Source of the DNA: an uncultured Actinomycetes bacterium
GTDB lineage: Bacteria > Actinomycetota > UBA4738 > HRBIN12
Assembly: GCA_963778545.1 (NCBI GenBank)
Contig: CAVZUW010000003.1
Span: forward strand, 26,365 to 90,364
DNA length: 64,000 nt
Reading direction: 5' to 3'
A program made the translations under genes and the position numbers. The notes below the pieces were generated by a model. The model did not search any database. It was not told the DNA's origin and saw nothing but the letters and a program-made list of their open reading frames with translations. Below, one piece after another: positions 8,795 to 63,719 of this stretch (positions within the stretch are counted from its first letter, which is position 1; every line of letters starts with the position of its first letter).

Positions 8795-9581
8795 ATGAGC
8801 GACTCGATCCGGTTCGACACCGCGGCCGGTCACTACGACACGACCCGGGCGATCTCCGACGAGTCGATGGAGCGCACGATCTCGCTCCTCGCCTCCGAGC
8901 TCCGGGACCGCGGCCGCGGTGCTCGAGGTCGGGGTCGGGACCGGCCTGCTCGCGCTCCGGCTCCACGATGCCGGGATCCCCGTCTCGGGCCTCGACCTGT
9001 CGGCCCCGATGATGGCCAAGCTCGTCGAGAAGGCGGGCGGCGAGCCACCGTTCCCGCTCGTGCTCGGCGACGCCACGAACATGCCCTTCGTGGATGGAGG
9101 GTTCGGCGGCGCGTACCTGCGGTGGGTGCTGCACCTGATCCCCGACTGGCGGGGCGCGCTCGCCGAGATGGCGCGGGTGGTACGTCCCGGGGGCGTGCTG
9201 GTCGTGTCGCTGGGAGCGTTCGACGAGGTGAGCACGGCGGTGCGCGCTCGGTTCTCCGAGATCACCGGCGTGTCGACCGATCCCGTCGGCCTGATGTGGG
9301 ACAACCACGACGAGCTCGACGCCGAGCTCGAACGGCTCGGCGGGCGGCTCCGCCTCCTCCCCCCGATCCCCGAGGAGGAGGAGGAGACGCTCGGATCGTT
9401 CCTGGACTGGATCGAGGAGGGTCGATGGTCCTGGACCTGGCACGTCCCCGAGGACGCTCGCCGCGACGCCGTCCGGCAGCTCCGACCCTGGGCCGCGGAG
9501 CGCTTCGGCCCGCTCGACGAGGTCGAACGCTACGAGCTCGAGACCGTGTGGCACGCGTACGACCTGCCCGGCGGAGGCTGA
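8795..9581 (+). CDS. Class I SAM-dependent methyltransferase with a +1 frameshift near 8905-8920
   Basis: N-terminus MSDSIRFDTAAGHYDTTRAI...ASELRDRG is in frame 2. Core VLEVGVGTGLLAL...(motif I)...VVRPGGVLVV is in frame 0 (ORF 8919-9581). A single base shift joins them. Confidence 0.7.
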
Positions 9582-9685
9582 ACCCGGACCCTGACCAGCC
9601 GCTATCCTGTCGCAACCGGGCCGAGGCCCCAGGAACCGATCGAGACCACGAACCAGAACCACGACCGCTCCGAGGAGGCTCCGAG

Positions 9686-10612
9686 ATGCCGATCACCGAG
9701 GTCGAGAAGATCTGGAAGGACGGGGAGCTCGTCGACTGGGCCGACGCGAACGTCCACGTGCTCTCCCACGCGGTGCACTACGGCAGCGGCGTGTTCGAGG
9801 GGATCCGCGCGTACGAGACCGCTCGAGGCCCGGCGGTCTGGCACCTCGACGAGCACCTGAAGCGCCTGTTCCGCTCGGCGAAGCTGTACCACATGGAGAT
9901 CCCGTACTCGATCGAGGCGATCACCGACGCGACGAAGGACGTGATCCGCGCCAACGGGTTGAACGCGTGCTACGTCCGCCCGCTGGTCCTCCGCGGATAC
10001 GGCGAGATGGGCGTGAACTCGCTCAACGCCCCCGTGAACGTGTTCATCGCGGTCTGGCCCTGGGGCGCCTACCTGGGCGAGGACGCGCTCGAACAGGGCG
10101 TGCGCATCAAGATCTCGTCGTGGCGGCGGAACTCCCAGAACGCGCTGCCGTCCTCGGCGAAAGCCTCGGGCCAGTACATCAACGGCGTGCTCGCCAAGAT
10201 CGAAAGCCTGAAAGCCGGGTATGACGAAGCCATCATGCTGAACGAGCAGGGGTTCATCACCGACGGTTCGGGGGAGAACGTGTTCATCGTCCGCGACCGG
10301 GTGCTGACCACGCCGCCGATCTCGGCCGGCTGCCTGGACGGCATCACGCGCGGCAGCGTCCAGACGATCGCCCGCGACCTCGGCTACGAGGTCACCGAGG
10401 AGAACCTGGTCCGCACCGACCTGTACAACGCGGACGAGTGCTTCTTCACCGGCACCGCCGCCGAGATCACGCCGATCCGCGAGGTCGACGACCGAGCCGT
10501 GGGCGAGGGGCACCGCGGTCCGATCACCAAGGAGCTGCAGGGCGCGTTCTTCGCCGCGACCAAGGGCGAGACCGACAGCTACGCCTCCTGGCTCACCTAC
10601 GTGAACGACTGA
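9686..10612 (+). CDS. ilvE: Branched-chain amino acid aminotransferase
   Basis: ATG 9686 after a GAGGAGG RBS. 308 aa, fold-type IV PLP enzyme. Motifs GVFEGIRAY, ASGQYINGVLAKIE and FFTGTAAEITPI. Confidence 0.9.
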   Translation: MPITEVEKIWKDGELVDWADANVHVLSHAVHYGSGVFEGIRAYETARGPAVWHLDEHLKRLFRSAKLYHMEIPYSIEAITDATKDVIRANGLNACYVRPLVLRGYGEMGVNSLNAPVNVFIAVWPWGAYLGEDALEQGVRIKISSWRRNSQNALPSSAKASGQYINGVLAKIESLKAGYDEAIMLNEQGFITDGSGENVFIVRDRVLTTPPISAGCLDGITRGSVQTIARDLGYEVTEENLVRTDLYNADECFFTGTAAEITPIREVDDRAVGEGHRGPITKELQGAFFAATKGETDSYASWLTYVND

Positions 10613-10616: not shown

Positions 10617-13194
10617 GTGACCGACCAGCCCGCCATCGGAGAGCGCGTGGACGACGACGAGGCTCGCTACCGCCTACCCCGCACCGTCCTCCCCCGTCGC
10701 TACGACCTGGTCCTCGAACCCGACCTGGAGGCCGTGACGTTCACCGGCTCGGAGACCGTGACGATCGAGGTGACGGAGCCGGTCGACGAGATCGTGCTCA
10801 ACGCGGCCGACCTCGAGGTGGGACCCGGGCGGCTCGAGGGTCCCGGCGGCACGCTCGAGGTCTCGACGATCCGCCTGGACCCGGAGACCGAGCGCGCGCA
10901 TCTGCTGCTGTCGGGGACGGCGGAGCCGGGGGAGTGGACGCTGCACCTGGAGTTCCGCGGGAGGCTCTCGGAGCAGCTGCAGGGGTTCTACCGCTCGACC
11001 TACACGGACGACGCGGGCGTCACCCACCCGATCGCGACCACGCAGTTCGAGTCCACCGACGCGCGCCGGGCGTTCCCCTGCTGGGACGAGCCGGATCTGA
11101 AGGCCGTGTTCGGCGTCACGCTGGTGGCGCAGGACGGGCTCCTCGCGATCTCGAACGGCCCCGAGATCTCGCGCGAGCCGGCCGAGCACGGACGCGTCCG
11201 CGTGCGGTTCGACGACACGATGGCGATGTCGACGTACCTGGTCGCCTTCGTCGTGGGCCCGCTCGAGGCCACCGAACCCGTCGACGTCGACGGGGTGCCG
11301 CTCCGGATCGTGTACCGGCCCGGCAAGGACGACCTCACGGCGTTCGCGAGCGAGGTCGGGGCGTTCAGCCTGCGGTTCTTCGCCGACTACTACGGGATCC
11401 CGTACCCGGACAAGAAGATGGACATGGTCGGGCTGCCGGACTTCGCGCAGGGCGCGATGGAGAACCTCGGGTGCGTCACCTACCGCGAGAGCCTCCTGCT
11501 GGTGAACCCGGACAACGCCACCCAGCCCGAGGTCGCCACGGTCGCCGACGTGATCGCGCACGAGCTCGCGCACATGTGGTTCGGCGACCTCGTGACGATG
11601 CGCTGGTGGAACGGGATCTGGCTGAACGAGGCGTTCGCGACCCTGATGGAGCTGCTGGCGGTGGACGCGTACCGCCCCGACTGGGAGCGGTGGAGCCAGT
11701 TCCTGCGGTCGCGCGCGATCGCGTTCGAGGTGGACGCGCTCGAGAGCACACGCTCGATCGAGTACCCGGTGCGCTCGCCCGACGACGCGGCCGGGATGTT
11801 CGACATCCTCACGTACACGAAGGGCGCGGCGGTCCTTCGGATGCTCGAGCAGTACCTGGGCGCCGAACGCTTCCGCGACGGGATCCGCCGGTACCTGGAC
11901 GAGCACCGGTTCGGCAACACCGAGACGCACGACCTGTGGGACGCGATCGAGAAGGCCACGGGCGAGCCCGTCCGCCGGATCATGGACGGCTGGATCTGGC
12001 AGGGCGGATACCCGCTGGTCTCGGCGCGGCTGCGCGACGGGAAGGTCGAGCTCGGGCAGCGCCGGTACCTGATCTCGGGCGAGGACGACGACACGGTGTG
12101 GGACGTGCCGCTGCTCGTCCGCACGCTCCGCGGGGACCGAACCCGTGCTGATCGAGCCCGGCGGCGTCTCGATCGAGGTCCCCGGCGACGGCCCGGTCGT
12201 CGTGAACGCCGGCGTGCACGCGTTCGTCCGCGTCGAGTACGACGACGAGCTGCTCGGACGGCTCACCGCGGACCTGCGCTCGCTCTCGACCGACGAGCGG
12301 ACGCAGCTCGTGGACGACACGTGGGCGGCGGTGGTCGCCGGCCGGCGCTCGCCGGTCGACTTCTGCCGGTTCGCGGAGTCGTTCGCCGAGGAGACCGAGC
12401 TCCCGGTGTGGCAGTCGTTGCTGCAGGGGCTCGCGTGGTGCGAGCGCTTCCTCACGGACGGCCCGCGCGAGCACTTCCGGTCGTGGATCCGCGGGCTGCT
12501 GTGGCCGGCGATCGAGCGGATCGGCTGGGAGCCGCGCGAGGGCGAACGCGACCTGGACAAGCCGCTCCGCGGCGCGCTGATGGCGGCGCTCGGCGTCCTC
12601 GGCGCGGATCCCCAGGCGTTCGGCATGGCGATGGAGATCGAGCGCGAGGCGCGCGGCGACGGCCAGGTCGACCCCTCGCTGGTGGCGGCCTCGGTCGCGA
12701 TCGTGGCCGCGGGTGGGACGCCGGAGGACTTCGAGCGGTACCTCGAGGCGATCGGTTCGGCGCGGACGCCCCAGGAGGAGCTCCGGTACCTGTACGCGCT
12801 CCCGGACTTCCGGGACGCCGGGCTCGTCCAGCGGACCGTGCAGATGACGCTGTCCGGCGAGATCCGGACGCAGAACGCGCCGGGCGTGCTCGCGCGGGCG
12901 GTCGCGAACCGCGAGCACGGAGATCGAGCGTGGGCGTTCCTCAAGGAGCACTGGGACGAGATCGTGTCGAAGCTCGCGCCGACGACGCTCGTCTACGCGG
13001 CCGACGGCGTTCGGTACCTCACGGAGCCCGAGCAGGTCGAGGACGCGGCCTCGTTCTTCGCGGCACACCCGATCCCGCAGTCGGCGCTCCAGCTCCGGCA
13101 GATCCTCGAACGCCAGCGCGTGAACCAGACGTTCCGCGATCGCGCGACCCCCGAGCTCATGGCCGCGTTCTCTGCCGGCCCCGAGCTGGGGTAG
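10617..13194 (+). CDS. pepN: Aminopeptidase N (M1 family) with a +1 frameshift in a GGGG run at 12132-12135
   Basis: Frame 0 carries GAMEN and HELAHMWFGDLVTMRWWNGIWLNEAF (HEXXH-E). The ERAP1-like C-terminal domain continues in frame 1 (ORF 12145-13194). Deleting one G restores ...TLRGTEPVLIEPGG. Confidence 0.85.
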
Positions 13195-17775: not shown

Positions 17776-19246
17776 GTGGAAGGCGAACGACCGTTGGTGG
17801 TGACCGAGGAGTACGAACGCCTCGGCGGCAAGAAGCTCTCGCTGATCGACGTGCTCGCGCAGTCGGTCGGCTTCATGGGGCCGGTGTTCAGCGCAGCGTT
17901 CATCATCCCGCTGATCATCGGCGTGAACGCGTCGGGTCGAGGCGCGGGAACCTCCGCCGCGCTCGCCGTGTTGATCGCCGGGATCGGCGTGTTCGCGCTC
18001 GGCTGGATCGTGGCGCAGTACGCGAAGAAGATCCACGCCGCGGGGTCGCTGTACGACTACGTCTCGAACGGGCTCGGCAAGACGATCGGCGCCGCGACGG
18101 GATGGTTGTACTACGGCGGCACGATCATCCTCACGACCGGGCTGGGGTTGCTGATCGGCGGATACGTCCACGACAACCTCCTGCCGGTCCTGGAGATCGA
18201 CCTCGACCTGCCGATCTGGGTGTGGGACACGATCTTCGCGCTCGGCCTGTTCGCCGTCCTGTACTTCGGCGTGCAGATCTCGACGCGGGTGCAGCTCACG
18301 CTCGCGCTGATCTCGATCGCGGTGGTCCTGATCTTCTTCATCACGGTGATCGCCGACCTCGGGGGCGACAACGACATCGCGAAGGCGTTCGACCCGTCGC
18401 CGGCGGGTGGGTTCAGCGGGATCCTGTTCGGCGTGCTGTACGGGGTGCTGATCTTCGTCGGGTTCGAGACCGCGGCGAACCTGGCGGAGGAGACCGCGGA
18501 GCCCAAACGCGCGATCCCACGGGCCGTGCTCGGGGCCGTGGCGATCGTGTCGGTCTTCTACCTGATCGCGGCCTACGTCGAGGTCGCGGGGTTCGGGTTC
18601 GACCTCTCGGTGATCACGAGCCCGGAGGTTGCCGGCGCTCCGCTGTTCGCGCTCGGCGCCCCACCGGGCCCGCCGGGGTCGGAGTTCTGGCTGAAGATCC
18701 TGCTGGTCGTCGTGTTCCTCGACATGCTGGCGGTCTATGTCGGGGCGGCCGTCGCGTCGACCCGCGGCGTGTTCGCGATGGCTCGGGATCGCCGACTCCC
18801 GGGTGGGCTCGCCAAGGTGTCGAAGCGCTACGGGACGCCGGTGGCCGCGATCGTGCTGCTCATGGTCGTGCAGGCGATCCTGATCGTGGTGTCCGAGGCG
18901 AACGACACGCTCCTCGCGTTGCCGGGGCTGCCCGCACTACTTCTCGGTCTTCGTGTGGTGCGCGACGTTCGGAGGCTTCGCGCTCCTGGTCGTGTACTTC
19001 CTGATGTCGATCGGGGCGTTCCGCGGCGTCGGGGAGGACAAGGCGACCGCCGGCCTCATCGTCGCGGCGCTCGTGGGGATCGCGATCACGGCGGCGGCGA
19101 TCTTCGGGTCGTTCTACAAGGTGACGAGCCCGACGCTGCTGGCTCCGTGGTCGGCCGTGATCTGGTTCGCGATCGGCTTGATCTACATGGCGCTGGTCAA
19201 GGGACGCGAGCCCGCGAGCGACGCGCTGGCGGACCTCCGCACGTAG
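17776..19246 (+). CDS. APC-family amino acid permease with a +1 frameshift in a GGGG run at 18924-18927
   Basis: TM-rich N-terminal 385 aa in frame 1. The C-terminal 97 aa (ORF 18953-19246, HYFSVFVWCATFGGFALLVVYFLMSIGAF...) is in frame 2. Deleting one G gives LALPGCPHYF. Confidence 0.8.
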
Positions 19247-19290: not shown

Positions 19291-19355
19291 CGTCCTCATC
19301 CTGAGCGAGAACCACACGCTCGATCCCGGCGCGCGATCTCGGGGCGCTGGTTCGG

Positions 19356-21949: not shown

Positions 21950-23511
21950 CGGGTCAGCCACCCCCCGTCGACCGGCAGCAGCGCGCCGGTGATGAACGAC
22001 GCGTCGTCCGAGAGCAGGAACGAGATCGCCGCGGCGACGTCCTCGGGTTCGCCGACGCGGGGGACCAGGAGCCGGTCCTTCATCGAGGCCCACGCCTCGG
22101 GCGAACGCAGGTCGGCGCCGGGGATGAACGAGGTCGCGATCGGTCCCGGCGCGACCGCGTTGACGCGGATGCCGCGGTCGGCGAGCTCGACCGCGAGCGC
22201 CTTCGTCAGCATCTTCACGCCGCCCTTCGATGCGTTGTAGTGCACCTGCGGGTGGCCCGTGGAGGCGACCACGACCTCGGACTCGATCGTCGCGAGGTTC
22301 ACGATCGCCCCGCCGCCCGCGCTCGCGATCACCGGCGCGATCGCCTGCGTCACCAGGTACATCCCCTTGAGGTTCGTGTCCAGGACGAGGTCCCATTCGT
22401 CCTCGGCGAGCTCGTCGAGCGTCGACATCCGGACGAGGCCGGCGTTGTTCACGAGGTAGTCGATGTGCCCGAACGCGTTCACCGCGCCGTCGCGAGCGCT
22501 CTCGATCTCGGAGCGATCGCGCACGTCGGCGTCGAACGCCACGCCGGTCCCGCCGCCGTCCGCGATCGCCGCCACCGTCTCCTCGGCCGCCTCGAGCTGG
22601 ATGTCGACCACGGCCACCGCGGCGCCCTGCGACGCCAGCCGGAGCGCGGTGGCGCGGCCGATGCCGGAACCGGCGCCGGTGATCATCGCGATCTTCTCCG
22701 AATGGTCGAAGCTCACTGGCAGCTCCTGCTGGTACGCGACCTCGGTGAGGTCCATCGCGAGCCCGCCGCCGTCGGCGACGAGCGAGGTCCCGGTGACGAT
22801 CGACGACTCGTCGCTCGCGAGGAACAGGCAGCACGCCGCGATCTCGTCGGCGGTCGCCGGTCGACGGAGCGGGGTGTACTTGGTCACGAGGGCGTAGGCC
22901 TCGTCGAGCGAGATCCCGCGTTCGGTCACCAGGTCCTCCATCGCGCGATCGCCCATCTCGGTGATCACCCAGCCCGGACAGATGGCGTTCGCGCGGATGC
23001 CCTTCGGGCCGTAGTCGACGGCGATCGAACGCGCGAGCCCGTTCATGGCCGCCTTCGAGGTGCCGTAGGCGGCGCTCTCGGTGCCGCTCACGAACGCGTT
23101 CACGCTCGAGATCAGGACGATCGAGCCGCCGCCGCGTTCGATCAGCGGTGGGATCGCGGCCCGCGCGAGCCGGAACGCTCCGGTCAGGTTCACGTCGAGC
23201 GTCCTCTGCCAGCGCTCGTCGTCGACGTCCGCCGCGGCCCCGCCGAACCCCAGACCCGCGTTGGCGACCACGACGTCGAGCCCGCCGAACGCCTCGACCG
23301 CCGTCGCGACCGCCGCGCGGACGTGCCCGTCGTCCGCCGTGTCGCCGGCGAAGGCGAGGCCGCCGGTCTCGGCGGCGACCTCCTCGAGCGGCTCGGCGCG
23401 GCGGCCCGTCACGACGACCTTCGCGCCCTCCCGCGCGAAGAGCCGAGCCGCGGCGGCGCCGATCCCGGTCCCGCCCCCGCTGACGATCGCCACCTTGCCC
23501 TCGAGCCGCAT
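21946..23511 (-). CDS. Fused tandem short-chain dehydrogenase/reductase (two complete SDR domains in one reading frame)
   Basis: ATG 23511 with a GGAGG RBS. Domain 1 has TGGGTGIG...YGTSK. Domain 2 starts around MDLTEV...ITGAGSGIG...YNASK (internal ATG 22755). There is no stop between the domains. Confidence 0.75.
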   Translation of the reverse strand: MRLEGKVAIVSGGGTGIGAAAARLFAREGAKVVVTGRRAEPLEEVAAETGGLAFAGDTADDGHVRAAVATAVEAFGGLDVVVANAGLGFGGAAADVDDERWQRTLDVNLTGAFRLARAAIPPLIERGGGSIVLISSVNAFVSGTESAAYGTSKAAMNGLARSIAVDYGPKGIRANAICPGWVITEMGDRAMEDLVTERGISLDEAYALVTKYTPLRRPATADEIAACCLFLASDESSIVTGTSLVADGGGLAMDLTEVAYQQELPVSFDHSEKIAMITGAGSGIGRATALRLASQGAAVAVVDIQLEAAEETVAAIADGGGTGVAFDADVRDRSEIESARDGAVNAFGHIDYLVNNAGLVRMSTLDELAEDEWDLVLDTNLKGMYLVTQAIAPVIASAGGGAIVNLATIESEVVVASTGHPQVHYNASKGGVKMLTKALAVELADRGIRVNAVAPGPIATSFIPGADLRSPEAWASMKDRLLVPRVGEPEDVAAAISFLLSDDASFITGALLPVDGGWLTR

Positions 23512-25597: not shown

Positions 25598-26063
25598 CTA
25601 CGTGACGTCGCAGTCCTCCGGCTGCGGCTGGTCGATCCGGGGACTACCGTCGGTCGGCACCTTGAAGAACACCACTCCGAGTTCGACGGGCTCCGTGGTC
25701 TCGTTCCGCCCGACGTGAACGGTCGATCGGGAGCTCCACGAACGCGTCCCCTGGTTCGTAGACCAGCGGGGCGCAGTCCTCCGCGTGGTACACGGTGAAG
25801 GTGCCCGACTTGACGGTCACGAGCGTCCGGCCCGGATGTGTGTGCCAACCGGTCGACGAGTTCGGTCCGAACGTGAAACTCGCCACGACGGTGTTCGTGT
25901 TGGGTTTGGCGCGGAACTCGAACTTCTCCTCGGTCGCCCCCGCTCCCAGCACCTCGGAAACAACGGAGCCGGTTGGCCCTGTCGCGATCGCCACGCCGGA
26001 GAGCGTGAGCGACACGGCCATGATCGAAAGAGCGACCACCCACTTGCTGCGGTACTTCATCAT
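25598..26063 (-). CDS. Secreted cupin-domain protein (GWHTHPG family) with a +1 frameshift near 25715-25730
   Basis: Signal peptide MMKYRSKWVVALSIMAVSLTLSGVAIA. Cupin core ...GWHTHPGRTLVTVKSGTFTVYHAEDC...GDAFVELPID. After the shift the frame reads VHVGRNETTEPVELGVVFFKVPTDGSPRIDQPQPEDCDVT and ends at the TAG whose complement is at 25598-25600. Confidence 0.65.
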
Positions 26064-43303: not shown

Positions 43304-43399
43304 CCTTCACTCCTTCCCTTGTAGACGTGGATCCTCGGGGTTGGCGCATGTTCGACCCTGGTCACACCGTCAAAGGCGATCATCGCCGCGAGCGCCGCC

Positions 43400-45210: not shown

Positions 45211-45212
45211 TC

Positions 45213-45610: not shown

Positions 45611-45957
45611 TTCATCGCCGACCTCGCTTCCGCTTCTTCCCGATCTCCGAGTCGCGGTGGTTCTTCTCGTTCGCGTGCATCGCGCACAACGACTGAAGGT
45701 TCTCCTCGTTGTCGTCCTCCACCGAACGCCTTGGCCTGGATGTGGTCGACCGTGGTCGCGACCGCGCCACAGACTCGACAGCCGGGCTCGAGCCGGAGGT
45801 GGGCGGCCCGGATCTTGGGCCAACGTGAGCCGTAGTCCCGCCCTGCGGTGACCCACCCTCCGCCTCGACGGGTGTGGTCGGGGCACCTGCCGCCGTACCT
45901 GGTGCGGTTGGGGCAGCCTGGCTCGGCGCACTGAACGGGCAGCAGGTTCAGGCTCAT
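45611..45957 (-). CDS. HNH endonuclease with a +1 frameshift at the GGTGGAGGA run (~45715-45725)
   Basis: MSLNLLPVQCAEPGCPNRTRYGGRCPDHTRRGGGW...CRVCGAVATTVDHIQAKAFGG, then the shifted frame gives EDDNEENLQSLCAMHANEKNHRDSEIGKKRKRGRR*, completing the HNH motif (DH...N...LC..CHN.K). Confidence 0.7.
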
Positions 45958-46119
45958 GCCGTCCCGCCGTTCAGCACGTGCTCGACCACGATCGCGGTCC
46001 ACGTAGCACGGCCAGGTGGAGGCTCCACGCCGAGGGTGTTCAGCTCGAACGCGGCGGCCGTCTTCGGGCTGCCTGCGCCGGCGTGTGCAACCAGGGTCTC
46101 GCGGACGGTCCGGGCGATC

Positions 46120-48172
46120 TCACCCAGGGGATACAGTGCCGAAGACCCTGGCCCATCCTGGCCCACCGCCTCTGACCTGCGGGAATCGCTCTGAGCCACC
46201 CTGGCCCGGATCCTGGCCCAGCGTGGCCTGGGCCGGGATGGGCCGGGGTCCGTCCAACTGTTCTTCCAGGAGATCGTCATCGTCGGGGTCGGCTGGGCCT
46301 CGGAGGCCGATGCCCTCGATGTATCGGTCTCGGATCTCGCTCGCAGGGGTCCGGTGCCGAACCTCACGCAGGCCGGGGTAGGCGGCGTGCAAGTCTCGGA
46401 ACAGCACCGCCTTGGTGCCGGCGCGGTCCTTGCCCTCGTCCTGGCACCAGTCCTTCCACGCCGTCCAGAGCTCGTCCTTGCGAACCTCATGGACCGGCAC
46501 CGACGACGCAACGGTCCCGTACGAACGCGGAGACCGGGGAAGCGAGATCCTGGAGGCGCTGGAGGGCGGCCTCGGGACGACTGCGGGCATCTCGAAGTAG
46601 CCGCGAGCGTTCAGGCGATCCAGACCGTCGAGGGACCAGTTGAAGATGCCGGGTGCCTCGGCCAGCAAGGCATCGGTGAGCCCTGGGTCCTCCTGTCCGA
46701 AGAAGCTGTTCGTGAGCACCAGGACGATGAACCGGGACGCGAGGGCGCCGGATGCGTCGGTGAACCTGGGGACCTCGTTCGTCAGGACCATGAACCGCGT
46801 CGGGAGTCTGCCCGTCCAGGGGTCGCGGTACTTCCGGTCGATCGTCAGCGAGTCCTCGCCGGAGATCGACAGCAGCCGCTCGACCGCGACCGTCCCGTCC
46901 GCCCGCGTTGATAGGCGTGCATCGGAGATCAGCCCGAGCGGTCTTCCGATGAGCGGGGACAGGCCGAAGTTGGTCGTGAGCCCCGCGAGGGTCGGCGCGG
47001 CGACGTTGTGGGCGCCCAGCAGACCGGTCAGGACGCGACCGATCGTGCCCTTGCCCGAGCGGAGCGGCCCGACGAGCATGAAGATCTTCTGCAGGTCCGT
47101 GCCGCCTCCCAGGATGTAGCCCATCACCTCGGCCAGCGCGTCACGGGACTGCTCGTCCTCGGGCCACAACTCCTCGAGGAACCGGAGCCACCGGGCCGGG
47201 CGTCGGCGCCGTGCGGTCGTACTCGAACGGCAGGACATGCGGGGCGAAGTACGCGGGGGTGTGCGGGATCAGCTTGCGCGTCGAGATGGTCAGCAGCCCG
47301 TTCGCGAGTGGCACAACCTGACCCTGGTCCTCCCCCACGATCCACGCCGGCGTGGTGATGTGCATGTCCAGGTGGGTGTTGGCCCGGATGGCGTCGATGA
47401 GGTCGGCGATCTTGTAGCGGGTCGGCTCGAAGTCGACGAGCTCCACGTCGTCCTTGACCTTCTTCCAGTACTTGGCGCCGTCCAGCCACCGGTACAGGTC
47501 GCTCTCGAGACGGCGTTCGTCGAACTCGGGCCACGAGGTGCCGTCGTAGCGGTGGAACGTGTTGCGGTGATGGCGGACGAGCGACTCGACGACGTCATCG
47601 GGGTAGTGGTGCTCCAGGAACATCTTCCCGACGGCGTAGGGGTTCGACGGCGCGGGGACGGTCAGCGTCTCGACCGGCGCCAGCTTGGGCAGGTCCCGCG
47701 TGAACTCGTCGTGGAGGTCTTCGGCCGTCGGGTCCGTCACGCCGGCCTCCTCAGGTCGTGGCCGAGCTCGCGCCAGCGGTCCAGGTCGGTCGTCGAAGGC
47801 AGAGGGCGTCGGCATTCCGGGGCAGCGATCGTGGCCGCGACGCAGGAGCCGGCGGTTCGCGTCGATAACGTCACGCGGTACGCGCTGGTCGCCCTCGAAC
47901 AGGTGGCGGCAGCCCCGCCAGATCGCGGTCTCGAGGAACGCCGCGTTCTCCGAGCGGCGAGTTCGGGCCATCATCTCGAGCAGCGCCTTGCACTTCGCTT
48001 CGACGGTCAGCTCGGGATCGTCGGCGACGAGACGGGCGGCGGTCTCCCAGCGCCTGATCTCGGCGAGGACTCGTTCGGTCGCTTCGTCGGTGTAGGATTC
48101 GGGCTGGCGGTACGTCTTGGTAGTGGCGTTGGCCCCGGAGCCCTCCGGGGCCGTTCGCTGTCCAGGGTTCAT
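46120..48172 (-). CDS. Phage/plasmid primase, P4/D5 family (primase C-terminal domain plus D5-type NTPase), frameshift in 47141-47238
   Basis: ORF 47141-48172 (...NGLLTISTRKLIPHTPAYFAPHVLPFEYDRTAPTP) and ORF 46120-47238 (RWLRFLEELWPEDEQSRDALAEVMGYILGGGTDLQKIFMLVGPLRSGKGT...) together make the TIGR01613-like domain and a Walker A motif. Confidence 0.8.
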
Positions 48173-48420
48173 CCCGAACCACCCGACCTGCGAGCAGCCC
48201 GGACCTTGGCGCTCTTGTAGGCTAGGCCGAGCATGTAGGCCTTGCGGGCGTGCTCGGCACGACGTGCGCGCTCGGCGGGATCCAGCACTCCGTCGGGATC
48301 GACCTGACGCTCGAACCGCTCGGCGTTGGCCTTGCGGGCTGCCTCCGTCGTCTTACGCGCATCGTGCATCGAATGCGCGGCGACTTGGTGGCGAAGGGAC
48401 TTCTCAACGACTGAACCCAC
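48169..48420 (-). CDS. Hypothetical small basic protein (element-borne)
   Basis: 83-aa ORF reads protein-like (AERARRAEHARKAYMLGLAYKSAKVRAAR). No known domain. Confidence 0.4.
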   Translation of the reverse strand: MGSVVEKSLRHQVAAHSMHDARKTTEAARKANAERFERQVDPDGVLDPAERARRAEHARKAYMLGLAYKSAKVRAARRSGGSG

Positions 48421-48559
48421 GGCCCACCTCCTCGGTGGTCACCGTGGGTCCCTGGTCCCACGACACCCGGCGTCTGCCGGAGAGCCGATATCGAGGGTGA
48501 TTCTAGGGGTCCGGCGTACGACGTGCAACGACGGCGTCGCTGACAGGACTTGCCCGTCC

Positions 48560-48797
48560 CCGGTGTCCGCCGACGGAAGTGGACGGCCACGCTACCGTCG
48601 CGTTGTGCCGTCTCGAACTCGGTCTTCTCGATCGCCACCACACCGTGCTTCGGACACATCGACACGACGGAGTACTCGCCCTCCAGCACGATGTCGGCCG
48701 CGCTTCGGACGCCGACCCACCGCTCCCATGTTCCGGGTCTCAGGCGCCGGCCACAGATCTTCCCGCGACCGTCAGAGATGCCACACAGCAGCTTCAC
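48560..48797 (-). CDS. Putative small Cys-rich (zinc-finger-like) protein, translationally coupled to the integrase. 3' end uncertain
   Basis: GTG at 48797 overlaps the integrase stop (GTGA). VKLLCGISDGRGKICGRRLRPGTWERWVGVRSAADIVLEGEYSVVSMCPKHGVVAIEKTEFETAQRDGSVAVHF. Downstream the frame degenerates to Arg/Pro-rich junk. Confidence 0.3.
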
Positions 48798-49738
48798 AGC
48801 CGATCCCCCGGCGCGGTCCGTCGATGGGCGTCGTCGAGAGCGCGTTCGGCGGCGACGCACGAGCCGTAGCGCGACAGCATCGAGCGGCTGCGCCAACCGG
48901 CGAGGGCCATCAGGTTCTCGCCCTCGACGCCGTCGGCCATCCTGTCGTGGGCGAAGGTGTGGCGGAACCGGTGCAGGTTGATGCGCTCGTCGATCCCGGC
49001 GTCCCTGGCCCGCTTGCGGACGATCTGGGCGATGCCGTTGTCGGTGAGCGGTCCCGCGAGACCGAGCCACAGGTTCGGCAAGTGCGCAGCGCGGTGTCCG
49101 GCGCGGGCGCGCAGGTAGCGGTCGAGCGCCTGGGCGCACTTGTGGCCGAAGGCGACGGTGCGGATGCGCCGACCCTTGCCGGTCACGGTGGCCTGTCGGA
49201 GCCGGAGGTCGATGTCGTCCGTGGACAGGTTCGTCAGCTCGGCACGCCGGCAGCCGGTGTCCACGAACATGCGGATGATCGCCAGGTCTCGCCGGTCGGC
49301 GAAGGCCGTCCCCGAACACGCCTTGATGAGCGCGGCGAGCTGGTCGTCGGCGATCACCGGGACGGGCTGCTCGGGGACGATCGGCGGGTGCATGTTCACC
49401 ATCGGGGAGACGCTGATCTCGCCGTCGGAGACGGCCCACCGGAAGAACTGTTGGAGCCCCCGATAGCGGATGTGCACCGAGGTCGGACTCACGCGCTTGA
49501 GCTCGGCGGCAACGAACGCCTCGACGTGTTCCCGCGTGATCGCGTCCACGCGGGTCGGCATACCGGAGCGCTCGAGGAACGCGGCGAACAACTCGACGGC
49601 GTCTAAGTAGGTGCTCGTTGTACGGGGCGACAGGTTGCGCGCCGCGAGCGCGATCTCGAACGACTGCGCGAGCCGACGGACGTCACCGAGGTCGGATGCG
49701 TCACGCCGGCGTGACGCCTTGGCGGTCCTGGTCCCCAT
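48794..49738 (-). CDS. Tyrosine-type site-specific integrase/recombinase
   Basis: 314 aa. N-terminal SAM-like domain. C-terminal catalytic motifs R...(HRFRHTFAHD)...RY with ...LSRYG. Located 95 nt from the tRNA-Arg 3' end. Confidence 0.9.
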   Translation of the reverse strand: MGTRTAKASRRRDASDLGDVRRLAQSFEIALAARNLSPRTTSTYLDAVELFAAFLERSGMPTRVDAITREHVEAFVAAELKRVSPTSVHIRYRGLQQFFRWAVSDGEISVSPMVNMHPPIVPEQPVPVIADDQLAALIKACSGTAFADRRDLAIIRMFVDTGCRRAELTNLSTDDIDLRLRQATVTGKGRRIRTVAFGHKCAQALDRYLRARAGHRAAHLPNLWLGLAGPLTDNGIAQIVRKRARDAGIDERINLHRFRHTFAHDRMADGVEGENLMALAGWRSRSMLSRYGSCVAAERALDDAHRRTAPGDRL

Positions 49739-49833
49739 ATCCTCCTGCCTGTCCAGTTAGCGGCTCACTATGCGGTGTGCATGAGGTGAGCGTCAATCGA
49801 GGGAGGCTGGATATGACCTCTGACCTGGGGTTG

Positions 49834-49908
49834 TGCGCCGGGGAGGACTCGAACCTCCGACCCGCTGCTTAGAAGGCAGCCGCTCTGTCCAGACTGAGCT
49901 ACCGGCGC
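49834..49908 (-). tRNA. tRNA-Arg (anticodon TCT)
   Basis: 75-nt cloverleaf read on the minus strand: GCGCCGG-TA-GCTC/AGTCTGGACA/GAGC-G-GCTGC/CTTCTAA/GCAGC-GGGTC-GGAGG/TTCGAGT/CCTCC-CCGGCGC-A. Confidence 0.9.
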
Positions 49909-50951: not shown

Positions 50952-52452
50952 TCAGAACATGACCGACGCCGTGTTGGAGCAGACGGTCGTGTTGTACTCG
51001 CAGACCTTGTAGACGATCGTCCCGCCGTTGGTCATGACCACGTCCGTGAACGTGCCCGTGTTGGCCGCCGCCCCGAAGTTCACGCCGTCGCGGTACAGCG
51101 ACAGGTACTGCGACGTCGCGCCCGTCCACGTGAGTGTCACGAGCTTCACGGTCGCGAAGAACGTCTGCCCGCTCGCGGTCAGCGTGAACGTCCCCGGTTC
51201 GGGCGGTGGAGGCGGTGGAGGCGGTGGAGGCGGCGGAGGTGGCGGGGGCGGCGGGGGTGACGCCGTGAAGCCCGAGAACAGCAGGCGGTTCGGCGAGCCA
51301 GAGCCGGGGCTCTTCACGACCCCCTGCGTCGCGCTCGAGGTGATCGTCGAGGCGACCTGGGCGGGGGTGGCGGTCGGGTTCGTCTCGAGGTAGGTGGCGA
51401 CCACGCCCGCGACGTGTGGCGTCGCCATCGACGTGCCGCTGATCGTGTTCGTGGCGGTGTCGCCCGAGCCCCATGCGGAGGTGATGTTCACGCCCGGCGC
51501 GAACACGTCCACGCAGGTACCGATGTTCGCCCACGACGCCTTCGTGTCGGTCGAATCGACGGCGCTCGACGGTGAGCGCCGCCGCGACCCTGGCCGGCGA
51601 GCTGTTGCACGCGTTCGCGGCGAACCCGAAGATGTTGCCGTTCCCGGCGGCGATCGCGTACGTCACACCGTCGCTGATCGACCTCGAGACGGCCTGGTCC
51701 ATCGCCGTCGACGCCGAGCCGCCCAGGCTCATGTTCGCGACGGCGGGCTCGCCGGGGTCGTGGTCCTGGGTCACCCAGTCGATGCCCGCGACGACCTGGG
51801 ACGTGCTGCCCGAACCCTGGCAGTTCAGGACCCGGACGGCGACGAGGTTCACCTGCTTGGCGACGCCGTACGTCGAACCGCCGATCGTCCCGGCGACGTG
51901 CGTGCCGTGGCCGTGGCAGTCATCGGCGCTCCCGCCGTCGATCGCGTCGAACCCGCTCGTCGCGCGCCCGCCGAACTCCTGGTGCGAGAACCGGATCCCG
52001 GTGTCGATCACGTACGCGGTCACGCCGCTCCCGGTCGCCGTGTACGTGTACGCGTTGTCGACCGGCAGCGAACGCTGGTCGATACGGTCGAGGCCCCAGG
52101 TCGCCGGCGTCTGCGTCTGGGACAGGCGCACCACCGCGTCCTGCTCGACGTACGCGACGCGTGGGTCGCGACTCGTCCGGAGCGCCTGCGCCCGAGACAT
52201 GTCGGCGACGAACCCGTTCAACGCGGACGAGAACACGCGCTGCACGCTGGCTCCGTACGCACGCTGCATACCGGTCGCGACGAACCCGGGTGCCCGAGGT
52301 ACCGGGGATCGCAGCACGACGATGTAGCGGCCGGGGATCGCGTGACGGTGGAGGATCAAGCGGCCGGGACGGGCTGACGCCGGTCCGGCTCCCCACACCA
52401 GCAGGCCCGCGATCAGGGACAGGACGGTGAAGGTTCGGAGATGGCGACGCAT
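50952..52452 (-). CDS. Secreted subtilisin-like serine protease (S8) with a poly-Pro linker and C-terminal beta-domain; +1 frameshift near 51553-51570
   Basis: Signal peptide. Catalytic D (VIDTGI), H (HGHGTHVAG) in ORF 50842-52452. The S-containing segment GTSMATPHVAG is in ORF 50952-51512. The shift-restored junction reads ...[31 protein letters not shown]. 20x Pro linker. Confidence 0.85.
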
Positions 52453-53037: not shown

Positions 53038-53640
53038 CCGGCGTCGAGCCGCGCGGCCAGCGACGTCGCGGCCGCGCTCGGTGAGCCCGCTCGCCACGAC
53101 CACGTCTCCGCTCGTGATCGGCGCCTGCACGGTGGGTGCGGACACGATCCGCCCGTCGACGAGGATCGCGATCCGCGAACCCATGGCGGTCTCGGTGGCG
53201 GTCTGGAGGGCGGCGGTCCCGTCGGCCGTCAGGTTGACCGAGATCGACCAACCGGTGCTCGGCGGCGCATCCGGTGCGGCCCCCGCGTTCTCGATATCGC
53301 TTGCGTCCACGAAGCCCGGGCCGAGCACGTACTTGTCCCCCGCAGGTCCGAGCAGGACGATGCGCGGCGCGTCCAGGGCGGCTCCGACGCAGTCTCGGAG
53401 CCCTTCGCCTCGAACCGCGCACGTGAGCTCGGTCTGGTCCCAGGCGGCCGCGGATCTCGGCACGACCTCGATCACGGGACGCAGCTGGAACGCTCCGCCG
53501 TCCGAGGCGACCGTCGAACCCGACGGCGGCGGTGTGTCCTGGGTGGAGCTGCACGCCGAGGCGATCACGAGCGCGAGGAGCCACAAGGCCAACCGACGAT
53601 CTCGTTGGGTTCCGGTCGCTCCGCCCGCGCGCCGAACCAT
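53011..53640 (-). CDS. Lipoprotein with a SecD/SecF-P1-like periplasmic domain. C-terminus uncertain
   Basis: Lipobox LVIASAC. ...AILVDGRIVSAPTVQAPITSGDVVVASGLTE resembles the SecD head-domain signature. Confidence 0.5.
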   Translation of the reverse strand: MVRRAGGATGTQRDRRLALWLLALVIASACSSTQDTPPPSGSTVASDGGAFQLRPVIEVVPRSAAAWDQTELTCAVRGEGLRDCVGAALDAPRIVLLGPAGDKYVLGPGFVDASDIENAGAAPDAPPSTGWSISVNLTADGTAALQTATETAMGSRIAILVDGRIVSAPTVQAPITSGDVVVASGLTERGRDVAGRAARRRLDPRTSSP

Positions 53641-57044: not shown

Positions 57045-57558
57045 ATGAAGACCTGTCCGTACTGTGCCGAGGAGATCAAGGACGCGGCGATCAAGTGCCG
57101 CTGGTGCGGATCGTGGCTCGTCGATGAGATCCCGGCTTCGGCGGAGACGCCGCCCGAGAAGTCCGAGGCAGCGGAGGCGGAAGAGCCCAAGGTCGAGGAG
57201 AAGGCCGTCGCCCCTCCGCAGGCCACGATGATGGCGCCGGTCCCCGCCGCCCAGCCCAGGGTCGAAGCCGCTGCCGCTGCGCAGGCGCCTGCCGCGGCGA
57301 CCGCCGAGCCCGCGGCCGAGCCCAGGCGAGCCCGGCGGCAGGCCCCGCCCCGAAGCCAAGATCGAGTTCACGCACACGGGTTCGCGCTACCTGCTCGGGT
57401 ACGCGCCGGATCACTTCGGGATCTGGGATCGGAACACGCCGCAACAGCCCGTCGAGACCTTCCCGCGCAACGACGACGGTTGGGCCGCGGCATGGGCTCG
57501 CTACGCTTCCATCGAGACGAGCTGGATGGATCTGCGGACCGGTCAGAAATCCGGCTAG
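57045..57558 (+). CDS. Zinc-ribbon protein (paralogue of the 30481-31353 N-terminus): ribbon + Ala/Pro/Glu linker + conserved C-terminal domain; +1 frameshift inside the linker (~57310-57350)
   Basis: GGAAGGAG RBS, then [25 protein letters not shown]. After the shift the frame reads ...PEAKIEFTHTGSRYLLGYAPDHFGIWDRNTPQQPVETFPRNDDGWAAAWARYASIETSWMDLRTGQKSG*. Confidence 0.6.
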
Positions 57559-60633: not shown

Positions 60634-62649
60634 TGCCGGCGTTGGTCGGCACGCTGTCGCTCGCGCTGGCACTCGCCCTCGCGGTCTACGGGGTGACGGC
60701 TGCGATCGTCGGTGCGCGGACCGGCCGCCCGCGCGTGGTCGAGAGCGCGCGCACGGCGGCGTACTCGCTGTTCGCGCTCGTCGTCGTCGCGAACCTCGCG
60801 ATGCTCGCGGCACTTCTCGCGAACGACTTCTCGTTGCGCTACGTCGCATCGAACTCCAGTCGCGCGACCCCCACCTTCTTCAAGATGCTGGCGCTCTGGT
60901 CCGCCGACGAGGGCTCGCTGCTGCTGTGGAACCTCGTCCTCGGCGGCTACCTCGCCGCCGTCGCCTTCCGGTTCCGCCGCCGCCGCCCCGAGACCTTCCC
61001 GTGGGCGCTCGCGGTGATGTTCGGCATCTCGGCGTTCTACCTCGTCTTGGTGCTCGGGCCAACGACGCCGTTCGCGACGCTCGCCATTCGCGCCACCCGA
61101 CGGGCGGGGACCGCTCCCGCTGCTCCAGAACCATCCACTGATGGCGGCGCACCCGCCGTTCCTGTACCTCGGGTTCATCGGGTTCACGGTGCCGTTCGCG
61201 TTCGCGATCGCGGCGTTGATCACCGGGCGGGTGAGCGACGCGTGGATGCGGATCACGCGCCGGTGGACGATCTCGGCCTGGATCTTCCTCACGATCGGCC
61301 TGACGCTGGGCGCGCTCTGGTCCTACAGCGTCCTCGGCTGGGGCGGGTACTGGGCGTGGGACCCGGTCGAGAACGTCGCGCTCCTGCCGTGGCTGATGGG
61401 GACCGCGTTCCTGCATTCGGTGTTGGTGCAGGAGCGCCGCGGGATGCTGAAGGTCTGGAACCTGTCGCTGATCGTCGGGACGTTCGCGCTGACGGTCCTC
61501 GGGACGTTCCTGACGCGGGGGAGCATCCTCGCCTCGGTCCACACGTTCGCCGAATCGATCGTCGGGCCGCTGTACCTCGCGTTCCTCACCGTCGTGCTGC
61601 TCGGGGGGTTCGGGTTGATCGCGTGGCGCCGCGAGTCGCTCCGCGCCGAGGCGACGTTCGACACCCCGTTGTCGCGCGAGAGCGTGTTCCTCGGCAACAA
61701 CGTCCTGTTGCTGGTGCTCACGTTCACGGTGCTGATCGGCACGATCTACCCATTGCTCGCCGAGGCGGTGACCGGTGGCAAGGTCTCGGTCGGCTCGCCG
61801 TTCTTCAATCGGAACACCGCTCCGGTGGCGCTGCTGCTCCTGTTCCTGATGGGCATCGGACCGCTCCTGCCGTGGCGGGCGGCCTCGGCGTCCGCCGTCC
61901 TGCGCCGGCTGCAGGTGCCGATGTGGGCGGCGGCGGCGACCGCGGCGCTCCTCGCGCTGGTCGGAGCCGGGGTCGTGGCGGTGATCGTGTTCGGACTGGC
62001 GGCCTTCGTAGCCGCGGCGACGATCGCCGAGATGGTCCGCGGCGTCCAGGCGCAGCGGCGCGCGCACGCGATCTCGGTCGGCGCGGCGATCCGGGCGGCG
62101 GTGTCGAGGAACCGCCGGCTCTACGGCGGGCTCGTCGTCCACCTGGGCCTGATCGTCGCGGTCGTCGGCGTGTCGTGGGCCGCGCTCTCAGACCGCTCTT
62201 CGGAGGTGACGATCGCCCGCGGCGAGGTCGTGCACGCCCAGGGCTACGACCTGCGCTTCGACCGGCTCACGACCCGCGACGAGCCGCAGCGACGGGTCCT
62301 GGTCGCCGAGCTCACGGTCCTCGACCCCCAGACCGGACAGGAGGTCGTCCGGCTCCAGCCGTCGCTGAACCTGTACCCGGCGGCGTCCGAGCCGATCGGC
62401 ACGCCGTCGATCCGGGTCGGCACGCCCTTCAACGGCATGGTCGACCTGTACGCGTCCCTCGTCACGGTCGAGAACGGCACGCGGGCCTCGTTCCGCTTCT
62501 TCGTCAACCCGGGGATCGGGCTGCTGTGGTTCGGCGGCGCGGTGATGGCGTTCGGCGGCATCGTGGCGGCCTGGCCGTCCCGGCCGCGTGCGGCCAGCCC
62601 CCGCGGTCCCGAACCCCTCGCCGAGCGTCGCGAGGAGGTGACGGTGTGA
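60633..62649 (+). CDS. ccmF: Cytochrome c-type biogenesis protein CcmF (haem lyase), +1 frameshift near 61085-61095
   Basis: Frame 0: ...FKMLALWSADEGSLLLWNLVLGGYLA... Frame 1 (ORF 61141-62649): ...PLLQNHPLMAAHPPFLYLGFIGFTVPFAFAIAAL...WAWDPVEN... (WWD domain and the Pro-rich haem-handling motifs). Confidence 0.85.
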
Positions 62650-63245
62650 GCGTCGGCGTCGACGAGAAGGACGAGGCCGCCGAGCCGGAGGGCCGCGCGC
62701 GTTCGCGGCGCAGGTGGCGGACCGTCGCGATCGTGCTCGCGCCCCTGGTGCTGTTCGCGCTGCTGCTCGCCTCGGGCCTCGGGCGCGATCCGCGGGCGCT
62801 CCCGAGCGAGCTGATCGGACAGGCGGCGCCGACCTTCGCGCTGCCGAGGCTCGACGCCGGTGGCACGATCGATCTCGACGACCTGCGGGGGCAGGTGGTC
62901 GTCGTGAACTTCTGGGCGTCGTGGTGCGTGCCGTGCCGCGAGGAGCACGACGCGCTCGCGGCCGCGTGGGGCCGGTACCGGGAGCGGGGCGTCGTCGTGC
63001 TCGGCGTGTCGTTCGAGGACACGAAGGAGTCGGCGCTGGCGTTCCGGGACGAGCTGAAGGGGGACTGGCCGCTCGCCGACGACCCCGGCTCGCGAACGGC
63101 GATCGCGTACGGCGTGTTCGGGGTCCCCGAGACCTTCGTGATCGCGCCGGACGGGACGATCGCGGCGAAGACGACCGGCGCCGTCACCTACGAGTGGCTC
63201 ACCGACGAGATCGAGGGAGCGCTCCGGGCCGGGAACGTCGAGTGA
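62646..63245 (+). CDS. ccmG: Thiol:disulfide interchange protein CcmG/DsbE (TlpA-like thioredoxin)
   Basis: GTG overlaps the ccmF stop. TM anchor. NFWASWCVPCREEHD thioredoxin motif. Confidence 0.8.
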   Translation: MSVGVDEKDEAAEPEGRARSRRRWRTVAIVLAPLVLFALLLASGLGRDPRALPSELIGQAAPTFALPRLDAGGTIDLDDLRGQVVVVNFWASWCVPCREEHDALAAAWGRYRERGVVVLGVSFEDTKESALAFRDELKGDWPLADDPGSRTAIAYGVFGVPETFVIAPDGTIAAKTTGAVTYEWLTDEIEGALRAGNVE

Positions 63246-63719
63246 GCGGCCGAACGCGCTCGTTCGCGGTGCTCGCCGCGGCGATCGCGGTCGTCGGGCT
63301 CGCCGCCCTCATCGCGTCGCGGTGGTTCGGACCCGACCCGGACGCTCGACGAACGCGTGCACGAGATCGGCGCCGGGTTGCGGTGCCCCGTATGCCTGAA
63401 CCTCTCGGTCGCCGACTCCCCGTCGAAGCTCGCCGGTGAGATGCGCTCCGAGATCGAGACCCAGCTTCGCGCCGGCCGGAGCCCCGACCAGATCCGCGCG
63501 TTCTTCATCGATCGCTACGGCGAGTGGATCCTGCTGTCGCCGCGTCGGCACGGGTGGAACCTCCTGCCGTGGGCCGTGCCGATCGTCGGCCTGCTGGCGG
63601 GCGTCGCGCTGTGGGTGGCGTTCGTCCGGCGTCGCGCGCCCGCGCCCGCCGGCGAGGTGACCGAGACCGAGCACCGACGCATCGAGCACGAGCTCGCGGA
63701 TCTGGAGGAACCCGGGTGA
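63242..63719 (+). CDS. ccmH: Cytochrome c-type biogenesis protein CcmH, +1 frameshift near 63335-63345
   Basis: GTG overlaps the ccmG stop. N-terminal TM in frame 2 (VSGRTRSFAVLAAAIAVVGLAALIASRWFGPDPD). Then ORF 63357-63719 frame: LDERVHEIGAGLRCPVCLNLSVADSPS...RYGEWILLSP (LRCxxC haem-handling motif). Confidence 0.7.

Follow-up and report, generated by a model that had tools for sequence, protein, structure and literature searches.

Watson and Warr reportedly noted in 2019 that the indel errors left behind in long-read consensus assemblies fragment gene calls. R10.4 Nanopore bins with less than about 40-fold coverage have been reported to need short-read polishing against fragmented genes (PMC9262707). 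The Microflora Danica (MFD) catalogue is Nanopore-only, having been assembled with Flye (--meta --nano-hq) followed by a single Medaka round; signs of error in its lower-coverage MAGs were described by the authors (PMC12313526). Here we analyzed a 64,000-nt stretch of the genome of an uncultured Actinomycetes bacterium (contig CAVZUW010000003.1, hereafter the window), in which an earlier note, made from the letters alone, had counted at least 14 single-base frameshifts and had judged them to be probable assembly indels rather than pseudogenes. More shifts than that exist, 11 confirmed in chromosomal genes and about 25 or more in an integrated element, and the attribution is supported by the private nature of the lesions, by the behavior of sister assemblies, by the selection that has been kept, and by the lack of nonsense codons. 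We consider it highly probable (roughly 0.9), judging from the sequence comparisons described below, that the frame breaks are consensus errors of a low-coverage long-read metagenome assembly and not mutations of the organism.

Frame breaks in the chromosomal genes

All 11 confirmed chromosomal shifts are net +1, and they occur at a density of about one per 4-5 kb; two of them (22717 and 53070) had not been listed before. Comparison with orthologues, a check that the earlier note had proposed, was performed using relatives with 87-95% nucleotide identity, which read through the window's shift sites in a single frame. All chromosomal events that could be polarised are insertions present in the window alone, as judged against two to five relatives covering each site, and the one-base events comprise 10 insertions and no deletions (sign test, p = 0.002). 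The claim that almost all shifts are +1, with a uniform direction, therefore holds for the chromosome (10:0) but fails inside the integrated element, where the shifts run in both directions and about one third are of the -1 type. Each gene that had been listed does change frame at or near the place originally given, although for the element gene at 43303-42820 the change was seen by eye only.

On the plus strand, the extra base in the SAM-methyltransferase gene lies at 8917 (within 8915..8919, GGCCG[C]GGTG, with the inserted base bracketed here and below), just 5' of motif I (VLEVGVGTG); it is absent from the relatives L041, L002 and L003, and Methyltransf_11 is read downstream in the other frame. 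In pepN, encoding an M1 aminopeptidase, the insertion is at 12126 (12124..12128, ACG[C]TCC); Peptidase_M1 is read in one frame and ERAP1_C in another, and in L002 the orthologue occupies one ORF of 861 aa. The gene had been correctly named, but the shift had been placed in the GGGG at 12132-12135, a run that is equally long in L041. The amino-acid permease gene likewise shifts as claimed (18928..18932, CT[G]CCC, net +1 relative to five relatives), but the extra base is more simply located at 18930 than in the GGGG run at 18924-18927. A shift regarded as possible at about 19320-19340 in a gene labelled 'LLM' oxidoreductase was confirmed as an extra A at 19323 (19321..19325, CTCG[A]TCC), which is absent from four to five relatives and whose removal restores a 318-aa ORF collinear with that of L041; the 'LLM' family label itself found no match in Pfam or NCBIfam.

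Further along the same strand, the net +1 in the Zn-ribbon gene (57318..57345) falls within an Ala/Pro-rich, length-variable linker in which the exact lesion is ambiguous, and after repair the product (170 aa) can be aligned over its whole length with one ORF in five relatives (L081-L085). The insertion in ccmF is at 61087 (61085..61089, GCCA[T]TCG) and is absent from L081, L082 and L085, with positions 5-96 and 110-577 of TIGR00353 matching in two frames. In ccmH the extra base is at 63320 (63318..63322, TCG[C]GGT), after the signal peptide and ahead of the CXXC domain, and positions 24-140 of the CcmH profile match in the second frame; here again the gene had been identified correctly, but not the place (63335-63345). 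Orthologue coverage is full-length for pepN, the permease gene and the Zn-ribbon gene.

Four shifts lie in genes on the minus strand. The insertion at 22717 (22715..22719) falls a few nucleotides upstream of an SDR gene's stop codon, where it abolishes the overlap of stop and start codons (GTGA), so that two SDR genes are read as one 522-aa ORF holding two adh_short domains; five of the five relatives covering the site differ from the window. The insertion at 53070 (53068..53072), in a gene encoding a SecDF_P1_head domain, is about 14 codons before the gene end, resulting in an altered C-terminus, and is absent from L081, L082, L083 and L085. The S8 protease gene contains an extra base at 51568 (51566..51570, ACCGT[C]GAGC in the sense direction) that is absent from L082, L083 and L085, and its Peptidase_S8 match (Pfam) is divided between two frames, at positions 1-176 and 178-276. 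For the secreted cupin, a three-frame reading indicated a net +1 within 25722..25740, and positions 3-69 of the Cupin_2 profile bridge the repaired junction, but, as the site is not covered by any close relative, the exact extra base is not placeable.

Frame breaks in the 11-kb integrated element

The integrative element (38798..49876) is bounded by exact 44-nt direct repeats at 38798-38841 and 49833-49876, the second of which is inside a tRNA-Arg gene. It has an intact integrase and a perfect pair of 44-nt att repeats, suggesting that the element is recent or still active. Indels are far denser here than in the chromosome. In terL (43303..44745, minus strand), where at least two shifts had been noted, a three-way DNA alignment that included L138 and L139, two intact copies from JGI, revealed about 13 indel events. 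The insertions lie near 44586 (+2), 44570, 44167, 43862, 43645, 43617, 43544 and 43450, the deletions near 44719, 44327, 43744, 43466 and 43323. The assignment of these events as lesions of the window is backed by both intact copies. Three terL fragments match phrog_9 at positions 188-301, 306-357 and 358-473, with coordinates continuous across the frames, and after repair by hand the protein shares 83-87% identity with intact TerL proteins (472-482 aa). The adjacent P27-family terS (44746..45211, minus strand) contains four events relative to L139 (-1 at 44964 and +1 at 44885, 44827 and 44747), and positions 3-90 of Terminase_4 bridge the repaired junctions; together, the repaired TerS and TerL share 81-87% identity with intact homologues.

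Further affected genes of the element are also on the minus strand. A small phage ORF shifts by net -1 (or +2) at a G7/C7 run, as had been proposed, with the run located at 45301-45307, and intact homologues of 85-90 aa, including five of 87-90 aa, align gap-free across the junction. The HNH endonuclease gene has a net +1 at about 45718 (45712..45724), the Pfam HNH domain bridges the repaired junction, and L086 provides a single-frame match over residues 23-110. In the primase/D5-like gene (46492..47200), a +1 at about 47198 (CCC, where a relative has CC) divides the phrog_6088 match into positions 357-471 and 471-763 in two frames, and each of more than 14 intact homologues is split at 47198/47181. 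DNA alignment with L089 revealed an additional, compensated pair in this gene that had not been listed (+2 near 46580 and +1 near 46494), leaving about 28 codons out of frame; a further +1 near 47640 was suggested by L089 only, while the other homologues and the GC3 signal favor no shift. For the hypothetical gene running from 43303 down to 42820, part of the region 42817-43303 in which a shift had been claimed, a three-frame reading by eye points to a probable +1 at 43145..43160, and no homologue was present among the fetched loci; the relatives retrieved via the primase show no synteny over terS-terL, and neither the cupin gene nor this 43.3-42.8 kb gene had a homologue among them. On the plus strand, a paralogous repeat pair (40300..40780, spacing 395 versus 396 nt) contains three shifts not listed before, near 40302, 40345 and 40775, which are visible because the two repeat copies encode the same peptide in different frames.

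The terS-terL region reaches about one event per 120 nt, roughly 30 times the chromosomal density and in both directions, and defective integrated elements are common. Both observations would fit a situation in which the chromosomal shifts are artefactual while the element is a cryptic prophage or satellite in genuine decay, with real frameshifts in its packaging genes. We consider this very unlikely. Despite about 17 indels, no nonsense codons are present in the frame-corrected terS and terL, and neither gene has a deletion longer than 2 nt. In terL, the substitutions specific to the window are distributed over the codon positions as in the intact relatives (ratio 0.70, compared with 0.75 and 1.16), and the intact integrase and perfect att repeats also argue against decay. 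If the breaks in the element are consensus errors like those of the chromosome, the consensus would have retained both insertions and deletions there. We conjecture that the many errors in the element reflect support by few reads, as might be the case if it were carried by only part of the population; alternatively, reads from related elements may have been mixed in at polishing.

Sister assemblies and the sequence context of the extra bases

If the frame breaks arose during assembly, other assemblies of the same kind should carry similar lesions at other sites. L041 and L085 each contain 13-14 private one-base insertions and four deletions in coding sequence, at positions unlike those of the window, and L085 has its own, independent extra base in ccmH, 17 nt further on than the window's. 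Pooled, the long-read sister assemblies contain 0.79 events per kb, compared with 0.055 in apparent short-read contigs covering the same genes (JGI/SPAdes/MEGAHIT; p = 6e-8), with L081, L082 and L085 assigned to Nanopore from contig naming and ENA accession series, and L001, L002 and L083 to short-read platforms from contig naming and source. L041 is labelled as an MFD MAG, and the platform is documented only for MAGs with that label. The events in the long-read sisters comprise 32 insertions and 9 deletions; the insertion bias of this pipeline has been seen here only, in three assemblies. The window's proteins are on record from NCBI and ENA only, which is the source pattern of MFD assemblies. 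We infer from these data that the window was assembled in the same way as its long-read sisters, most likely a Nanopore-only assembly made with Flye and one round of Medaka.

The claim that several shifts lie in G/C homopolymers was not borne out. A census of homopolymers identified 115 runs of at least 5 bases, and only one of them (45301-45307) coincides with a shift. The inserted base copies a neighbor in 5 of 11 cases, which is about chance level, and the insertion sites share no common sequence context; the lesions are all 1-2 nt. Thus, of the two sources of systematic insertion that had been suggested, long-read consensus error fits the data, but homopolymer miscounting is not supported, the sites being ordinary and non-repetitive. 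Two more specific sources were considered and rejected. Several sites resembled, by eye, merged SNP alleles, in which the extra base is the allele of another strain, but the excess of mismatches in the 6 nt that flank each insertion on both sides (density 0.098, compared with a background of 0.067) is not significant (p = 0.11) and the sister assemblies have no such excess. A shared error or methylation motif was suggested by CG[C]GGTG at two insertion sites, yet this 7-mer occurs 54 times in the window and its link to insertions is not systematic. In the chromosome, the process would be one in which stray single bases, nearly all of them insertions, remained in the consensus at ordinary, non-repetitive positions.

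Alternative explanations, consequences and known systems

A further possibility is that the single-base frameshifts were truly acquired, very recently, in roughly a quarter of the genes. The lesions are present in the deposited sequence, both halves of each gene are well conserved, as very recent inactivation would leave them, and, since the relatives are 5-13% diverged, lineage-specific events are possible in principle. Such pseudogenisation is nonetheless very unlikely. About 35 frameshifts would have accumulated unaccompanied by a single nonsense codon, larger deletion or IS insertion, and the earlier statement that in-frame stops and larger deletions are absent proved true wherever it could be checked. 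Selection also is not relaxed: window-specific substitutions downstream of the shifts number 33, 17 and 135 at codon positions 1, 2 and 3 (ratio 0.37), and the ratio in unbroken control genes is the same (0.37), indicating that purifying selection is unrelaxed downstream of the shifts, although this test is blind to extremely recent mutations. Recent pseudogenisation would moreover require the simultaneous loss of pepN and of the essential respiratory-maturation genes ccmF and ccmH, and it would leave unexplained why the pattern recurs, at other sites, in unrelated sister assemblies of the same apparent technology but not in those from short reads. The 10:0 bias towards insertions is also opposite to that of spontaneous bacterial indels, which Mira, Ochman and Moran are said to have found in 2001 to be biased towards deletions and towards repeats.

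A variant in which the extra bases are real, and belong to an actinobacterial population or subpopulation with an unusual insertion-prone process that acts at non-repeat sites, affects a large share of the genes and is too recent to have left a trace of selection, strikes us as highly improbable. Programmed ribosomal frameshifting (of which the +1 type had been named in the earlier note as a refuting case) or transcriptional slippage that restores the frame, which the uniform +1 direction in chromosomal genes and the net +1 of prfB-type frameshifting might bring to mind, is effectively refuted by the single-frame orthologues in every relative. The context of every site is different, with no conserved shift site or slippery motif in common, and the affected genes have no functional link to each other.

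Consensus error thus remains the preferred reading, and if the frame breaks are sequencing or assembly mistakes, their importance is for the quality of annotation, not for biology. Automated annotation would fragment about 17 genes or call them pseudogenes, including ccmF and ccmH (cytochrome c maturation), pepN, the permease gene and the packaging genes of the element, and would show two SDR genes as falsely fused. MAGs of this type would bias pseudogene counts, metabolic reconstructions, pangenomes and calls of satellite or prophage 'intactness'. Because the errors are not limited to homopolymers, fixes that address only homopolymers would miss them, and integrated elements can far exceed the surrounding chromosome in errors.

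Among known systems, the window bears a superficial similarity to the reductive genomes of Mycobacterium leprae and recent host-restricted pathogens, in which mass pseudogenisation likewise produces a high fraction of interrupted genes. In those genomes, however, real decay is accompanied by nonsense mutations, deletions of many sizes, IS insertions and relaxed selection, none of which was found in the window. The classic Nanopore error is the miscounting of homopolymers, often with loss of bases, whereas the window's chromosome contains insertions at non-repetitive positions. The closest match is provided by the residual indels of long-read (Nanopore and PacBio) assemblies (Sereika et al. 2022, PMC9262707), which, like those of the window, are private single-base indels that break conserved genes, are commoner in lower-coverage metagenome bins, and are likewise carried by the window's sister MAGs that are, or appear to be, Nanopore-only.

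Frame breaks in the chromosomal genes

The window is actinobacterial DNA of 70% G+C, and a scan of GC3 and codon position shows clear coding segments in which the frame changes, at several places, on the same strand and without a gene boundary. The earlier note had counted at least 14 single-base frameshifts; the observation is real, as three-frame reading, profile coordinates and orthologues agree on the genes it listed, but the tally was too low. The pepN, permease and methyltransferase orthologues in a relative (L002) are single ORFs, each of which matches the window in two pieces in different frames, and adjacent frames also share the profiles of Peptidase_S8 (positions 1-176 and 178-276) and CcmF (TIGR00353; positions 5-96 and 110-577). 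The Pfam domain of the repaired cupin crosses the junction, a single ORF in 5 relatives matches the repaired Zn-ribbon protein over its full length, and deletion of the A at 19323 in the gene labelled "LLM" yields a 318-aa ORF collinear with that of another relative, L041. Nucleotide alignments place one extra window base, absent in every covering relative, at 8917, 12126, 18930, 19323, 51568, 61087 and 63320. Two further window-private insertions had escaped the first reading: one at 22717, a few nucleotides before a stop codon, abolishes a GTGA stop/start overlap and joins two SDR genes as a 522-aa ORF with two adh_short domains, and one at 53070 changes the final ~14 codons of a SecDF_P1_head-domain gene.

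All 11 chromosomal events are net +1; ten of them resolve to one-base indels, every one an insertion (sign test p = 0.002). The description of the shifts as almost all +1 therefore holds outside the integrated element described below, but not inside it, where both directions occur. The proposed association with homopolymers is not borne out: among 115 runs of at least 5 bases in the window, a shift coincides with a 7-base run only. The GGGG at 12132-12135, suggested as the pepN shift site, is equally long in L041, with the extra base 6-9 nt upstream, and in the permease an insertion at 18930 costs one mismatch, against three for an insertion in the suggested run at 18924-18927. The inserted base copies its neighbour in 5 of 11 cases, about chance level for DNA of this composition. 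A sequence motif shared among insertion sites was ruled out. Window-private one-base indels also lie in intergenic DNA (33150, 33176, 54100, 56966 and 56992, those near 56966 and 56992 being deletions), where they look the same as real indels at 5-8% divergence.

The mobile element and its indels

Exact 44-nt direct repeats (38798-38841 and 49833-49876, the latter within tRNA-Arg) mark the ends of the element, which is 11 kb long, and a tyrosine integrase adjoins the tRNA. It also carries genes for a D5/DUF5906 primase-helicase, HNH, terS and terL; no capsid genes were recognised within it, which gives it the look of a phage satellite. Intact terL relatives (70-87% identity) on 17 soil-metagenome contigs (P0121-P0137) indicate that the family is widespread. 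In three relatives (L082, L083 and L085), window position 35003 is joined directly to 50952, so that the 35.0-50.95 kb region is variable throughout; the missing 16-kb stretch (35004-50951) contains a big secreted ORF, the element, tRNA-Arg and a VanZ-like gene. A 1001-aa ORF (35877-38882, minus strand; weak fn3, RGI-lyase and GH26 matches) includes an exact 563-nt direct repeat (35884-36446 and 36724-37286, spacing 840 nt or 280 codons). This perfect identity is odd because the flanks have diverged, with one nearby 74-nt stretch 77% identical and the remainder barely alignable, and the repeat could reflect either a domain duplicated very recently or a duplication introduced in assembly.

The terL gene is divided among three ORFs across which phrog_9 coordinates are continuous. 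Repaired by hand, its product (425 aa) is 83-87% identical to intact JGI/ENA terL proteins (472-482 aa) over 98-100% of its length. Set against the intact copies L138 and L139, the gene has ~13 events (8 insertions, 5 deletions), of which one mutually compensating -1/+1 pair, near 43466/43450, was positioned by eye. Four events affect terS, in which Terminase_4 crosses the repaired junctions. Each of more than 12 intact primase homologues is split at 47198/47181 in its match to the window; alignment with one locus (L089) shows a +1 in a CCC run at 47198, and also a +2 near 46580 that is compensated by a +1 near 46494, with ~28 codons out of frame in between. The Pfam domain of the repaired HNH protein crosses its junction, and the frame change in the short ORF that contains the 7-base run (45301-45307) is confirmed by intact 87-90-aa homologues, which align gap-free over the junction; it amounts to -1 net or, just as well, +2. 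Three more events emerge from two paralogous repeats at 40.3 and 40.7 kb, whose common peptide is read in a different frame in each copy, and reading by eye suggests a candidate shift in a hypothetical gene (43303-42820). The element total is thus ~25 or more, and density in terS-terL reaches ~1 per 120 nt, versus ~1 per 4-5 kb in the chromosome. The earlier note had seen no in-frame stop codons or larger deletions, and the ~17 terS and terL indels are indeed accompanied by no nonsense codon and no deletion > 2 nt. The left arm of the element contains the paralogous unit pair (40258-40739, ~395 nt apart, encoding a conserved "PDFE..RIGEFWSYPQSRTFAELLIDCE" peptide) and a tandem 57-nt repeat (41494-41607, 88% identity).

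Single-base lesions in sister assemblies

Species-representative genomes searched with the intact aldehyde dehydrogenase (15396-16835) yielded close relatives among uncultured Actinomycetota MAGs only: L041 (CAVUTN010000006.1; MAG labelled MFD00962.bin.2.114), with 90-95% nucleotide identity, and L001 and L002 (the latter a SPAdes-named contig), with 86-91%. A second set, found via the aldehyde dehydrogenase at 54179-55735, comprises L081, L082 and L085 (ENA assemblies with "contig_N" names) and L083 and L084 (JGI contigs), and spans window 27.9-35.0 kb and 50.95-64 kb at 92-95% identity.

Over ~14 kb of aligned coding sequence, L041 shows 14 one-base insertions and 4 deletions of its own; the counts for L085 are 13 and 4 over ~15 kb (~1.2 per kb in both), and L081 and L082 have a few such private indels. 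These lesions are of the same class as those of the window, at other positions. A separate break interrupts the "LLM" gene of L003, another Microflora Danica (MFD) MAG, and ccmH of L085 has an extra base of its own, 17 nt from that of the window. L001, L002 and L083 have essentially no such lesions. The pooled rate is 0.79 per kb in long-read-type sisters (L041 classed by its MFD label; L081, L082 and L085 by appearance only) versus 0.055 per kb in short-read-type contigs (classed from contig naming and source; p = 6e-8), and insertions in the sisters outnumber deletions 32:9 (p = 4e-4). The consensus of the window and of its long-read sisters has stray single bases, mostly insertions, at non-repetitive sites. 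The public contigs of L041, L085 (ERZ25039579 contig_47840) and L003 have even more private single-base indels than the window; among the genes they break are pepN, the permease, an MFS transporter and a PhzF-like gene. L041 also has ~1.06 kb (4031-5095) between genes adjacent in the window (10614 and 10653), which may be an inserted gene or IS element.

The window probably derives, as does L041, from an MFD-type Nanopore-only assembly. The MFD long-read catalogue is Nanopore-only, built with Flye (--meta --nano-hq) and one round of Medaka polishing, and its authors, checking for Nanopore-associated errors, found that coding density was reduced in MAGs of lower coverage (PMC12313526). According to published benchmarks, R10.4 Nanopore bins below ~40-fold coverage still need short-read polishing against fragmented genes (PMC9262707).

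Selection and the origin of the frame breaks

Window-unique substitutions downstream of the shifts in six genes fall 33/17/135 on codon positions 1/2/3, a (1+2)/3 ratio of 0.37 where ~2 is neutral, and the ratio in eleven control segments is identical (72/42/309; 0.37). In terL it is 0.70, versus 0.75 and 1.16 in intact relatives. Purifying selection is unrelaxed downstream of the breaks.

With a probability of roughly 0.9, therefore, the frame breaks are assembly errors, as the earlier note had proposed: the lesions are private to the window, the same kind occurs in long-read sisters, selection is unrelaxed, and the terS and terL indels are nonsense-free. The genome bin may be low-coverage, and the element may be backed by very few reads or by mixed reads from related elements, which is plausible because some relatives lack it and its family is abundant in soil metagenomes; few or mixed reads would bring indel density near the raw-read level. 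A merging of strain-polymorphism alleles into extra bases had no statistical support.

Real decay confined to the element would account for the indel density and mixed direction there, and is somewhat more plausible than genome-wide decay, but is contradicted by the selection test, the lack of nonsense codons, the intact integrase and the perfect att repeats. Real, very recent pseudogenisation across the window keeps a formal, small probability, yet would need ~35 frameshifts unaccompanied by lesions of other kinds, a bias toward insertions, the loss of ccmF, ccmH and pepN all at once, and a coincidentally like pattern in unrelated assemblies of the same technology. Programmed frameshifting is excluded, as orthologues are single-frame and the sites have no common context.

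Read as assembly errors, the frame breaks are no biological feature, and their value is as a caution for annotation and for analyses using long-read MAGs. Natural bacterial indels are biased toward deletions and toward repeats, whereas the chromosomal events here show the opposite spectrum, insertions at non-repeat sites.
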